Assembly (NCBI GenBank): GCA_012522795.1
Contig: JAAYJT010000014.1
Span: forward strand, 1,796-65,795
Direction of reading: 5' to 3'
Length of the DNA stretch: 64,000 bases
From: Bacteroidales bacterium
GTDB lineage: Bacteria > Bacteroidota > Bacteroidia > Bacteroidales > JAAYJT01
Positions 16,152 to 25,165 of this stretch are shown here, in pieces (the stretch's first letter is position 1; the number at the start of each line of letters is the position of its first letter). Both the position numbers and the translations under genes were made by a program. The notes beneath the pieces are model-generated. The model did not search any database. It was not told where the DNA came from and saw only the letters and a list, made by a program, of their open reading frames with translations.

Positions 16152-19100
16152 ATGAAAAGATTTTTTCTACCTATACTTTTATCTTTTTTGATGCTTCAGG
16201 GCTATGTGTCCGGACAAGAATTTGTTGTAACACAAACTCTGAAATGGGATGAAGCTCCGACTCTTCTTCATACTGACCCTCCAACTTATTTTTTGAATTT
16301 TGAAGATGCTTACTACCCTTCATCGGTTGGTATTCCGGCTTTTCAGAATACGGTTTTCTTCCCAGAAAGAAATTCGGTTTTTGTTTCCTTTGATATCATG
16401 AACCTTGTTTTTGATTCAACTGACATGAGTTCTTTTATCAGTTATGAAAGCTTTGATTTAATTGAGAATGAGATAAATATTATTGCTGAACCGGTTAAAT
16501 CACGCAATCAGAATGGAGTTCATATTTCTTTTATTCCGCTTGTAACTGATATATCTTCTGAAAAGGTTTACAAACTTGTTGAATTTGAGATTCTTGTCAG
16601 GTATCAGACTGGAGAAGGCCATGACGGCAGATTTAAAAATAATTATACTACACAATCGGTACTTGCCACAGGGCGTTGGTATAAATTTTCTGTTACTGAA
16701 ACGGGTGTTTACAAAATAACTTATAATGATCTGGTAAGTGCAGGTATGAATCCTGCCAGTATAAATCCAAAGAATTTAAGGCTTTATGGAAACGGAGGTG
16801 GAATGCTCCCTGAACCCAATTCAATTCCGCGTCATGATGATCTTGTTGAAAATGCTATCATTGTGGTAGGGGAAGAGGACGGGGTTTTCAATACTCAGGA
16901 TTATATTTTATTTTTCGGGCAAAGTCCGCATGAGTGGAGTCATACGCCAGGTTCTCAAACATTTGAGTTCAGGCATAATATATATTCTGATCATAATTAT
17001 TATTTCCTTACTGCCGATCACGGACAGGGCAAACGAATAGCATTGCTGCCAAATGAAGGAAGGCCTGCAAATTATTTTGTCAATACTTTCGATGATTATA
17101 TGGTTCACAGTCTTAATACTGAGAACCTTATGAAATCGGGCAGACAATGGTATGGTGAGAAATTTGATGGTATTCTTACAAGAGATTTCAAATTTAACTT
17201 TCCGGACCGGGTTCTGGATTCAGCTTTTACTACTCAGATACATGTAGCCGCAAATTCCCTTAAACCTACCAAATTTGTATTCGATATCAACGGAACTAAC
17301 CTTCAGGCCAATATATCCCAGGTGAGTAGCGGAAATTATCCACCTGTTGCAAAAGATAATATTATTACCAGCAAATTGGTGAGTGCTCAGTCTGATATTG
17401 ATATTAAGATCACATATCACAAAAGTTCATCGCCTTCAAAAGGGTGGCTAGATTATATCTGGATACATGCTTTCAGACGTTTAAGAATGAGTGGAGATCA
17501 GATGTCGTTCAGAAGTCTCAATTCGGTTGCTCCCGACCGTGTTTCTGAATTTAGGGTTGCAAACGCCAATACAGCACATTTGATATGGGATGTCAGCGAT
17601 CCGGCTAATGTTGGTAAGGTTGATGCAGCATTGCAGAGCGGCGAAATGGTTTTCAGGCTTGGCACCGGACAAAAAAGGGAATTCATTGTTTTTGATTCTA
17701 CCAAAGCTTATAATGCTGTTTTTGTGGAAAATGTTGCAAATCAGAATCTTCATGGCGTCAATGTTCCTGATTTATTAATAATTACTCATCCTCTTTTTCT
17801 TGACGAAGCCCGTCGTCTGGCTACTTTTCATAAAAACAATTCCGGTATTGACACACTTGTGGTAACAATACCCCTAATTTATAATGAGTTTTCGTCAGGA
17901 AAGCAGGATGTAACGGCTATCCGTGATTTTGTCCGTATGCTGTATGAGCGTGATCAGGAAACTGAAAAGTTTCGTTATCTTCTGATCTTTGGCGATGCTT
18001 CTTACGATTATAAAGATAGGGTTGAAGAGAATACGAACTTTGTACCGGGCTGGATGTCGTACGAATCCCTTGAACCTGTACAATCCTACATAACTGATGA
18101 TTATTATGGATTTCTTGATATTTCCGAAGGTGGTACGGGGGCAAATATCATTGATCTGGGAATAGGCAGACTGCCTGCCGGTACAGTAGAAGAGGCAGCG
18201 GCAATGGTTAATAAGATCATTTATTATTCTGAAAACTCGGAAATAACTATGGGTGACTGGCGGAACAATATCTGTCTTATTGCTGATGATGAAGATAGTA
18301 ATATGCATATCAGGGACTCGGAAATTCTTGCAAAGATCATTGATTCAACATATAATGCTTTTAACCTTAGTAAGATATACCTTGATGCATATACTCAGGT
18401 TTCTGTACCCGGTGGTAACCGTTATCCTGAAGTTAATGCCGATATAAACAAAGAAGTGCAAAGAGGAGCGCTGATAGTTAATTATATTGGTCATGGTGGG
18501 ATTTTAGGGCTTGCTCACGAAAGGGTTCTTGAAATAGTGGATATTAAGAACTGGACAAATTACGATCGTATGGCCGTTTTCATCACTGCTACTTGCGAAT
18601 TTGCCTATTTCGACGATCCGTCACATACTTCCCCAGGAGAGCTTGTTTTGCTTAATCCAAATGGTGGGGGAATAGCCTTGTTCACTACTACAAGACCAAC
18701 GTATGCAACTTATAATTTTTCATTGAACAAACGAATGTTTGAAAATTCTTTCCAGCGTATTAACGGAGAGTACCTTCGTCTGGGAGATATAATGAGGTTG
18801 TCAAAACAACATTCAGGACTTGATCTTAACGCCAGAAAATTTGTGCTACTTGGCGACCCTGTGATTAGAATGAACATTCCTACTTATGATGTTAAAACTA
18901 CCCATGTGAATGAAATCGAGATTGGCGGTAGCATAATGCCTATAATGAAAGCTTTGTCAATGGTAAATATTAAAGGCAATGTCACCAACTTTGAAGGAAA
19001 TGTGATTGATGATTTTAACGGTACACTTGTTCCTGTTATTTTCGATAAATCACAAAAAGTAGTTACCCTCGCTAATGACGGAGGTGAGACTTATACATTT

Positions 19101-23968: not shown

Positions 23969-25165
23969 ATGCGAATTTTTGCCTCGTTAAGAACGTCGTT
24001 GTTAGTAATGATGGTTGTAGTTTTGGGTTTTCCTACATTAGCGCAGCAAAGCTATTTGGGCAAACGTTTAAATACTGTTACTTCAGCCGTACCCTTTCTG
24101 ATGATAGCTCCTGATGCTCGTGCCGGTTCTATGGGTGACGTTGGGGTTGCATCAAGTCCTGATATCAATTCACTACATTGGAATCCTGCAAAATATGCAT
24201 TTATCAAAAAAGAAATGGGCTTTTCGTTAGCATACAGCCCTTGGTTACGAGCACTTGTTAATGATATTAACTTAGCATATTTAACTGGTTTTATGAGAAT
24301 TGATGATAATTCTGCCGTAGCGGGATCTTTATTATTTTTCTCACTTGGCGATATAACTTTTATGGGCGAAAATGCTGAGGTACTTGGTAATTATCGCCCT
24401 TCAGAATTTGCAATATCAGGAACTTATTCAAGAAAGTTCTCTGATCATATTTCCGGTGCTGTTTCCGGTCGTTTTATTTATTCTAATCTTACTCAGGGGC
24501 AATTTGTGTTAGGTCAGGCAACTAAACCGGGAACTTCAGTAGCTGCTGACGTAGCTGTTTATTATGAAAAGGATGTTGAACTCTTTAATACCGATGCAGT
24601 TTTTGCATGGGGAGTTAATATTTCAAATATAGGTGCAAAGATTTCATATAGCGATGATAATCTTACCAAGGATTTCATCCCGACTAATTTACGCCTTGGC
24701 CCAAGACTTTCAATTGACCTGGACGATTATAATACCTTGTCGTTTATGGCGGACCTTAATAAATTACTGGTCCCGACACCTCCAATCTATAAGACTGATG
24801 GCAGTGGTGAAATTGAAAAAGGTATGAATCCAGAAGTGTCAGTTCCGGTGGGTATGTTCCAGAGCTTTTTTGATGCACCAGGTGGTTTCTCTGAAGAGTT
24901 AAGGGAAATAAATGTTAGCGGTGGTGTTGAATATTGGTACGACAAGCAATTTGCATTGCGTGGAGGCTATTTTTATGAGCATGACACTAAAGGCGGTCGT
25001 AAATATTTTACACTTGGTGTAGGATTAAAATACAATGTTTTTGGTCTTGATTTTGCTTATCTGATCCCAACAGCACAAAAGCACCCGCTTGAGAACACAT
25101 TGAGATTCACCCTTTCGTTCGATTTTGACGCTTTCAGCGATTTGGATGCTAAACAAAGCAAATGA
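23969..25165 (+). CDS. porV: T9SS outer-membrane shuttle protein PorV (LptO)
   Basis: I place the start at the internal Met (MRIFASLRTSLLVMMVVVLGFPTLAQQ, a signal peptide), giving 398 aa. The motif ARAGSMGDVGVASSPDINSLHWNPAKYA is present, the pattern is beta-barrel-like, and the gene sits directly after porU. Confidence 0.85.
   Translation: MRIFASLRTSLLVMMVVVLGFPTLAQQSYLGKRLNTVTSAVPFLMIAPDARAGSMGDVGVASSPDINSLHWNPAKYAFIKKEMGFSLAYSPWLRALVNDINLAYLTGFMRIDDNSAVAGSLLFFSLGDITFMGENAEVLGNYRPSEFAISGTYSRKFSDHISGAVSGRFIYSNLTQGQFVLGQATKPGTSVAADVAVYYEKDVELFNTDAVFAWGVNISNIGAKISYSDDNLTKDFIPTNLRLGPRLSIDLDDYNTLSFMADLNKLLVPTPPIYKTDGSGEIEKGMNPEVSVPVGMFQSFFDAPGGFSEELREINVSGGVEYWYDKQFALRGGYFYEHDTKGGRKYFTLGVGLKYNVFGLDFAYLIPTAQKHPLENTLRFTLSFDFDAFSDLDAKQSK

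Follow-up and report, generated by a model that had tools for sequence, protein, structure and literature searches.

The window, that is, the whole stretch of 64,000 nucleotides analysed here, contains two genes for the sortase PorU, named porU-A and porU-B, followed by a single porV, whose product is the outer-membrane shuttle/anchor barrel for PorU, all of them on the + strand (Table 1). [quoted passage not shown] The ORF coordinates bear out the original prediction of two collinear open reading frames of about 1270 amino acids that lie 60 nt apart. The same prediction placed porV directly behind them. The gene does lie downstream, but its start neither abuts nor overlaps porU-B: the likely start is an ATG (protein beginning MRIFASLR..., signal-peptide-like) situated 137 nt past the porU-B stop codon. 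A longer porV reading frame, which begins with TTG at 23762 and overlaps porU-B, is an ORF-calling artefact. Terminator-like sites are not enriched in the region (10 found versus 7.2 expected in shuffles), and we infer from the sequence that porU-A and porU-B are co-transcribed. The octamer TAATTTTG matches TAnnTTTG, the Bacteroidetes -7 promoter consensus, and may provide an extra promoter for porV. The next gene, ispF, is a downstream operon neighbour and stands outside the secretion function.

Table 1. Features of the porU-porU-porV locus and their positions in the window.
Feature	Position	Strand	Description
porU-A	16152..19964	+	1270 aa, long form; ATG at 16152, one codon past an in-frame TTG
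porU-A dyad stretch	18492..18596	+	His781 codon 18492-18494, Cys815 codon 18594-18596
porU-A L5-loop counterpart	18693..18710	+	R848-P-T-Y-A-T; clade-A signature [P/A]849-T850
porU-A/porU-B spacer	19965..20024	+	60 nt; weak 5-bp hairpin only, at 19981-19993
porU-B	20025..23831	+	1268 aa, long form; same domain order as porU-A
porU-B dyad stretch	22362..22466	+	His780 codon 22362-22364, Cys814 codon 22464-22466
porU-B L5-loop counterpart	22563..22580	+	R847-L-A-Y-S-A; clade-B signature L848-A849
Candidate -7 promoter TAATTTTG	23872..23879	+	fits TAnnTTTG; 90 nt upstream of porV
porV	23969..25165	+	398 aa; NF033710 505 bits (cut-off 250), PF19572 218 bits
ispF	25162..25644	+	TIGR00151 208 bits; 4-nt overlap with the porV stop

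Both genes match the curated model for 'T9SS sortase PorU' (NF033707, cut-off 420) from end to end, porU-A with 1353.1 bits at model positions 1-1095 and porU-B with 1172.4 bits at positions 1-1083, and they are the only two genes in the genome with a match of this grade. The Pfam Peptidase_C25 domain (PF01364) scores 365 bits in porU-A, where it occupies approximately residues 543-908, and 364 bits in porU-B (approximately residues 541-905). In front of it, both copies carry an extra N-terminal 'long form' segment of approximately 140 amino acids (NF052318). The porU-A protein has a signal-peptide-like N-terminus and a C-terminal domain (CTD) of the PorU type, and porU-B ends in a PNPF-bearing CTD. 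The TIGR04183 CTD model recognises porU-A at 23.6 bits (cut-off 23) and leaves porU-B below its cut-off, while a model built from the genome's own CTDs gives 27.7 bits for B, 26.1 for A and 26.7 for PorZ. The two CTDs share PNPF and a W-x-G-R-x-x-D-G insertion. In BLASTP, A and B align collinearly from residue ~30 to ~1254 with 470 identities in 1238 positions (38%; 56% positives, 27 gap positions, 819 bits, E = 0), and this alignment contains all of the common blocks that the original prediction had quoted (GVYKIT, RLYGNGG.MLPE, IYNEFSSG, TAIRDF, NYIGHGG, FITATC, LLGDP and PNPF). The match of porU-A to Porphyromonas gingivalis PorU (PDB 6ZA2) has an E-value of 4.7e-142. When the PDB is searched with a single sequence of the catalytic domain, 6ZA2 is the sole match, and a 12-sequence profile is needed to reach the gingipains; the catalytic-domain profile scores RgpB at 65.6 bits versus 343.7 bits for PorU.

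Neither copy is a pseudo-enzyme, as had been anticipated from the sequence. Both carry the His/Cys dyad of the C25 peptidases, which does not vary among the 117 PorUs compared (34 from the clade of porU-A, 32 from the clade of porU-B and 51 others). H781 and C815 of A and H780 and C814 of B align with H655 and C688 of chain 6za2_A, and with His211 and Cys244 of RgpB. The dyad of P. gingivalis PorU is His657/Cys690 in literature numbering, an offset of +2 from the chain. Against two close relatives, dN/dS is 0.17 and 0.13 for A and 0.18 and 0.15 for B, which indicates purifying selection on both. The reading of both copies as genuine, catalytically equipped PorUs is thus supported at the level of sequence.

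The two copies have not changed at the same pace. Copy A is conservative and retains ancestral conserved sites, whereas copy B evolves faster. Column entropy is greater in clade B, with the largest excess over clade A at residues 970-1262, and the faster change of B falls chiefly in its CTD and the C-terminal Ig-like domains. Copy B has lost three residues, T1090, Y1117 and Y1014, which do not vary in copy A or among single-copy PorUs. Only two positions are near-fixed differences between the clades, so any shift in specificity between A and B would be subtle. The sharpest A/B difference maps to the S1-pocket-lining loop of gingipain R. In a profile alignment to this distant homologue, P849, T850 and A852 of A stand opposite D281, Q282 and W284 of RgpB. 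Gln282 and Trp284 of RgpB bind the P1 residue and form a lid over the S1 pocket (PMC4357240). At position 850, 33 of the 34 clade-A sequences have T, 27 of the 32 from clade B have A, and V is found in 33 of the 51 others. The corresponding S1-loop residues are V-V in P. gingivalis and most single-copy PorUs, [P/A]-T in clade A and L-A in clade B. The difference in this loop fits a split in substrate preference between the two copies.

P. gingivalis PorU shares with both copies its domain order over ~1100 residues and the C25 His/Cys dyad, and both copies may also have an atypical CTD of the retained type like its own; in P. gingivalis, as here, porU adjoins porV and the genome contains PorQ and PorZ. 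P. gingivalis has one porU without the long-form segment, whereas this genome has two diverged paralogues that both carry it. Flavobacterium johnsoniae likewise has an orthologue of the same family beside porV (Fjoh_1556), in a free-living member of the Bacteroidota with many T9SS cargo proteins; its PorU is single-copy, in contrast to the two found here, and ChiA, RemA and SprB are reported to be secreted without it (PMC9127263). The paralogue pairs of the F. johnsoniae T9SS, GldK/GldJ and GldN/GldO, are structural ring proteins and not a cargo-processing enzyme. PorU2/PorV2 (NF052324 / NF052325), a putative second sortase system, also pairs a C25 peptidase related to PorU with a PorV-family barrel. 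The PorU2 model NF052324 gives porU-A 208.4 bits and porU-B 171.2 bits against a cut-off of 450, which places both copies with PorU proper, and nothing in the genome scores above that cut-off. The gingipains (RgpA/B and Kgp) are mature proteases of ~435 amino acids with Arg/Lys specificity and an acidic S1 residue (Asp163 in RgpB), whereas both copies have a nearly invariant His opposite Asp163 (H719 in A, H718 in B) and so differ from gingipains at this site. In Gram-positive bacteria, a housekeeping sortase SrtA operates with specialised SrtB and SrtC that have different sorting-signal preferences and use a common secretion route. This is a functional parallel only, since the Gram-positive sortases have an unrelated fold, another acceptor and no sequence homology to PorU.

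In a sample of roughly 300 genomes of the order, approximately one-fifth to one-quarter have the porU-porU-porV arrangement. Of 20 two-copy genomes that were fetched blindly, 18 show this gene order, as do ~60 of 79 named loci, and a few genomes have three porU copies, with triple tandems in G124 and L087. The carriers include Lentimicrobium-labelled MAGs and are uncultured environmental Bacteroidales; no cultured strain with the arrangement turned up among the named loci. The same arrangement is present in two single-contig genomes (G279 and G286) and in the chromosome-level records OY781436.1, OZ223471.1 and OY781105.1. Within a phylum-wide sample, no tandem porU was seen outside the order. 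The original prediction had named as a refuting outcome that tandem porU proves to be common and already characterised. With up to one-quarter of the sampled genomes carrying it, the arrangement is indeed common, which is half of that clause; as for the other half, a literature search found no published description of a tandem porU pair.

In a quick tree, the copies in first position and those in second position fall into two separate clades whose sub-topologies mirror one another (SH-aLRT 96 and 97). An LG+C20 PMSF tree likewise places porU-A in the 'first-position' clade (99/96) and porU-B in the 'second-position' clade (91/99). The major tandem duplication is old and took place before at least 16 GTDB families of environmental Bacteroidales diverged. 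Younger independent duplications are found in G102, G009, G457 and the families f49 and f45, and a single duplication for all second-position copies is rejected by the AU test (delta lnL 344, p-AU 1.3e-6). Copy B was lost once inside the present genus, in G004, G007 and G008. The 1.1-kb gap between porU and porV in G004 contains an unrelated ORF of ~290 amino acids and no remnant of porU-B. A family with a B-type gene as its sole PorU (G040) appeared in the quick tree only, and the careful tree fails to reproduce it.

The partners of PorU are present once each. The genome (G000) has one PorV-grade match, the porV beside porU-B, a single PorQ on contig C89 (365 bits, cut-off 220) and a single PorZ on contig C17 (PF21544, 141 bits); one extra barrel of the PorV/Q family, on C27, falls below both cut-offs. 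Two complete and fully separate attachment complexes are therefore excluded, as PorV, PorQ and PorZ are single and PorU2 is absent above its cut-off. The 2.9-Mb genome encodes ~90 type A cargo proteins. In six of seven families the number of type A CTD candidates per Mb is greater in two-copy genomes than in their single-copy relatives, and in one family it is lower; the trend is not significant (sign test ~0.06, one-sided), and both genome size and relatedness confound it. Approximately 12 large proteins of G000, clustered on contigs C85 and C47, have a conserved NAEEVKVIKH linker and a longer CTD. The original prediction offered a division of cargo by CTD class, and two specific versions of it failed: neither long-loop CTDs nor type B CTDs track copy B. 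A profile built from the long-loop proteins (A1) finds this class in all three B-less genomes of the genus and finds none in the tandem-bearing G003. Type B CTD cargo numbers 4 in G000 and in G001, versus 5-8 in the B-less relatives.

The best reading of these results, which we hold tentatively and rate just short of probable, is that of two active, anciently duplicated PorU sortases with a division of labour. Both proteins would be exported by the T9SS and retain their own atypical CTD, and both would attach to PorV on the cell surface, like P. gingivalis PorU. PorU-A and PorU-B would share the processing of the very large type A cargo set, with a partly different cleavage-site preference or a partly different reaction outcome, namely transfer to a surface glycolipid versus release. 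In cargo-rich lineages, loss of either copy would therefore come at a cost. It is unlikely, though conceivable, that the labour is divided in one particular way, in which PorU-A would transfer cargo to the PorZ-delivered surface glycolipid and PorU-B, in which the S1 loop is altered and the C-terminal domains are relaxed, would hydrolyse and release it or serve another class of cleavage site. An error of MAG assembly or binning, or the decay of one copy into a pseudogene, is scarcely credible as the source of the pair. The window does come from a metagenome-assembled genome of 100 contigs, but the arrangement recurs in the single-contig and chromosome-level sequences given above, both frames are open for ~1270 codons, dN/dS is ~0.15 in both and the catalytic residues are intact.

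The two copies could instead perform the same job on the same cargo, with the extra sortase adding capacity for very many CTD proteins. Such a gain in dosage would agree with the independent recurrence of the duplication and the rejection of a single origin, with the tendency of genomes richer in type A CTD candidates to have more copies and with the very small number of fixed A/B differences; the triple tandems and the recurrent younger duplications fit it equally well. Copies of this kind are usually homogenised or lost, however, whereas the present ones are only 38% identical, have stayed distinct across at least 16 families with conserved signatures of their own, and differ in that B lacks the three residues kept by copy A and the single-copy PorUs. 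Since the duplication is old and both copies were retained, plain redundancy is disfavoured, and we consider added capacity somewhat unlikely as the explanation. Another arrangement would be an obligate mixed dimer of PorU-A and PorU-B on PorV, one protomer regulating the other, as a paralogue version of the P. gingivalis homodimer. In P. gingivalis, PorU reportedly forms dimers in which one monomer obstructs the active site of its partner, which has been termed 'intermolecular latency' (PMC10202324). The tight linkage, fixed order and probable co-transcription of the two genes, together with one PorV, one PorQ and one PorZ, are consistent with such a partnership. The two clades have mirrored sub-topologies as well, although plain vertical co-inheritance also predicts mirrored trees. 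The three genomes of this genus that lost B have kept the T9SS and its cargo, and copy A thus works alone, which makes an obligate heteromer improbable.

Two distinct, active-looking PorU lineages have long been kept by a large group of uncultured environmental Bacteroidales, beside one PorV, one PorQ and one PorZ, and the cargo sets of these bacteria are very large. To our knowledge, mechanistic work on PorU has so far used one-copy species only. If the two copies were merely redundant, the pair would be an ordinary gene-family expansion. How PorU selects effectors for release versus attachment was called unresolved in a 2023 review (PMC10202324), and a true division of labour between the two sortases would give a direct handle on the choice of the T9SS between anchoring and release. 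If the enzymes differ in specificity or outcome, their comparison would reveal the residues that set this choice in PorU, with S1-loop positions 849/850 and the K/N position 896 as the first to consider. Such a difference would also allow better prediction of which exported enzymes stay cell-bound in sediments, digesters and lakes and which are released there.

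[quoted passage not shown] The original prediction of two collinear long PorU-type ORFs upstream of porV was confirmed by ORF calling and BLASTP, and each of the sequence blocks quoted for both copies was found in the pairwise alignment (collinear over 1238 positions, 38% identity, 56% positives, only 27 gap positions). For porV, the ATG listed in the table below lies 137 nt past the porU-B stop and was preferred over a TTG at 23762. The spacer between the two porU genes holds a weak 5-bp GC hairpin with a T run (19981-19993), which was no better than chance in a shuffle control. 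The MEP-pathway gene ispF is the terminal member of the porU-porU-porV unit, and its start shares 4 nt with the porV stop (ATGA, 25162-25165).

Genes of the porU-porU-porV unit (window positions)
Feature	Position	Strand	Remark
porU-A	16149/16152..19964	+	long ORF, 1270 aa
porU-B	20025..23831	+	long ORF, 1268 aa
porV	ORF 23762..25165, plausible start ATG 23969 (MRIFASLR...)	+	NF033710, 505 bits
ispF	25162..25644	+	directly after porV

Both products match the NCBIfam equivalog model for PorU end to end (PorU-A 1353 bits, PorU-B 1172 bits; curated cut-off 420 bits), and they are the only two in the whole 2.88-Mb assembly to pass that cut-off. Pfam Peptidase_C25 is likewise found in both (365 and 364 bits). 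With 208 and 171 bits, both fall short of the 450-bit cut-off of the "PorU2" family and are not members of it, and a search of the host genome found no PorU2. Residues 167-1269 of PorU-A align with the P. gingivalis PorU structure PDB 6ZA2 (E = 4.7e-142), placing the His of GHGG and the Cys of TATC at chain positions 655 and 688, which we take to be His657 and Cys690 of the literature given the +2 offset of the construct. When 12 catalytic domains were combined into a profile, it reached gingipain R (RgpB, 1CVR) with 65.6 bits and set the same residues opposite His211 and Cys244. This dyad is invariant in all 34 sequences of clade A (the first-position clade), all 32 of clade B (the second-position clade) and all 51 other PorUs; by catalytic residues, neither copy is a pseudo-enzyme, in agreement with the original reading. 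Comparison with the two closest species gave Nei-Gojobori dN/dS ratios of 0.17 and 0.13 (porU-A), 0.18 and 0.15 (porU-B), and 0.09 and 0.04 (porV), and on these ratios both porU copies are maintained by selection.

Tandem porU genes are frequent in the order. Among 301 genomes at least 90% complete, PorU was found in 276, with two matches in 73, about seven of which are apparently split genes. In a blind check of 20 two-match genomes for which one coordinate alone was listed beforehand, 18 had the porU-porU-porV tandem and one carried a run of three copies; the tandem was evident from listed coordinates in 12 more. Roughly one-fifth to one-quarter of the order is estimated to carry it. The host genus has it in five of eight other species genomes, the remaining three having a single porU; MAGs labelled Lentimicrobium or Lentimicrobiaceae are among the named relatives of the host. 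Copy-B peptide patterns retrieved 79 named loci, a set skewed toward copy-B relatives, and in about 60 of them two or three PorU genes lie side by side. Copy number can exceed two, with three full-length or near full-length genes at L087 (JBBQIQ010000006.1) and L059 (G124:C1:145034-160318). Outside the order, about 200 PorU-bearing genomes of a phylum-wide sample contained no tandem pair; a single genome had two full-length copies, near-identical and on different contigs. No paper describing or testing two PorU genes was found in the open-access full-text papers that were searched, where a mention of "PorU2" proved to be a citation artefact.

Both trees that were built contain one clade of first-position copies and another of second-position copies. 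A quick maximum-likelihood tree (117 PorUs, LG+G4, quick search) unites 31 second-position copies (SH-aLRT 97) and, in the other clade, 30 first-position copies with the three single copies of the host genus (SH-aLRT 96), the inner groupings of the two clades mirroring one another. The more careful tree (64 sequences, site-heterogeneous LG+C20 PMSF, bootstrap not fully settled) recovers both clades, with support of 99/96 for the first-position copies and 91/99 for the second-position ones. Sixteen families are covered in both trees and a seventeenth (f3) in the larger only. The single-copy species G004, G007 and G008 nest within clade A beside the tandem-bearing G003 in both trees, and their state therefore goes back to a single secondary loss of copy B. 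No remnant of porU-B was found in the porU-porV spacer of G004. This 1.1-kb spacer (L025, G004:C3) holds an unrelated ORF of about 290 aa. Younger or separate duplications are seen in G102, family f49, f45/f10, G009 and G457, and a single origin of all second copies was rejected (one-clade constraint, p-AU 1.3e-6). Judged from the trees, one major duplication took place long ago and others have arisen repeatedly since.

Clade B has longer branches than clade A and higher column entropy (1.87 vs 1.67 bits), with the greatest excess at residues ~970-1262; T1090, Y1117, Y1014, R1225 and K1262 vary in clade B, whereas clade A and single-copy PorUs keep them with little or no change. Near-complete difference is confined to two columns (PorU-A numbering): 850 (T in 33/34 of clade A, A in 27/32 of clade B, V in most others) and 896 (K in 31/34, N in 31/32). 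At the adjoining position 849, clade A has P/A and clade B has L. Profile alignment sets PorU-A R848-P849-T850-Y851-A852 opposite RgpB I280-D281-Q282-Y283-W284, in loop L5. According to a structural review of clan CD peptidases (PMC4357240), Gln282 and Trp284 of this loop form hydrogen bonds with the P1 arginine, and Trp284 also closes the S1 pocket as a lid. The best A/B discriminator would therefore lie in a loop that is predicted to help form the S1 site. At the position that the profile alignment pairs with RgpB Asp163, on the floor of that pocket, both clades carry a His that is almost invariant.

That the pair is an artefact can practically be ruled out; adjacent PorU genes stand also in the chromosome-level records OY781436.1, OZ223471.1 and OY781105.1. 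PorV, PorQ (365 bits) and PorZ are each encoded once in the host genome, so two fully separate attachment complexes are unlikely, and the same PorV is presumably used by both PorUs. An obligate A-B heteromer is improbable. Outside the window, a further PorV/PorQ-family barrel (G000:C27:3384-4328; 149 bits to NF033709, below the PorV and PorQ cut-offs) directly adjoins the gene for a 1442-aa protein with a cargo C-terminal domain (CTD); the two may be a private carrier pair.

That the second copy answers a need for dosage or capacity is possible, if rather doubtful. The 2.9-Mb host genome has 96 type A CTDs by TIGR04183 and 90 by our own iterated model. First-look, uncurated candidates of the type A model were compared between two-copy and single-copy genomes, and per Mb they are higher in two-copy genomes for six of seven families, although contrasts are few and genome size confounds them. 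That more type A cargo accompanies two PorU copies is suggestive only.

Type A CTD candidates (first-look, uncurated)
Group	Two-copy	Single-copy
host genus	80-224	31-89
f32	688	209, 196
f115	213	42
f61	241	76, 89
f65	488	355
f102	204	101, 135
f109	95	232

The highest counts belong to G271 (f32, 6.5 Mb) and G192 (f65, 5.0 Mb), whose T9SS cargo repertoires would be of exceptional size should the candidates prove genuine. Two host gene clusters outside the window (G000:C85:1-22452 and G000:C47:3769-18899) encode about 10 large proteins of 800-1650 aa, all ending in a conserved NAEEVKVIKH-type linker and a type A CTD with a loop extended before the last strand, some with weak C25-like matches; a single cargo family seems to have expanded here in a lineage-specific way. 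Two specific versions of the suggestion that the sortases serve different CTD classes failed: the long-loop CTD subclass, found on about 12 large proteins, does not co-occur with copy B, and type B CTD counts do not track it.

The reading tentatively preferred here is that the two sortases divide labour. PorU-A, the conservative enzyme, and PorU-B, which evolves faster and differs in its S1 loop, would work on one common PorV/PorQ/PorZ platform. Other T9SS components, GldJ/K and GldN/O, are likewise duplicated and are earlier precedents.
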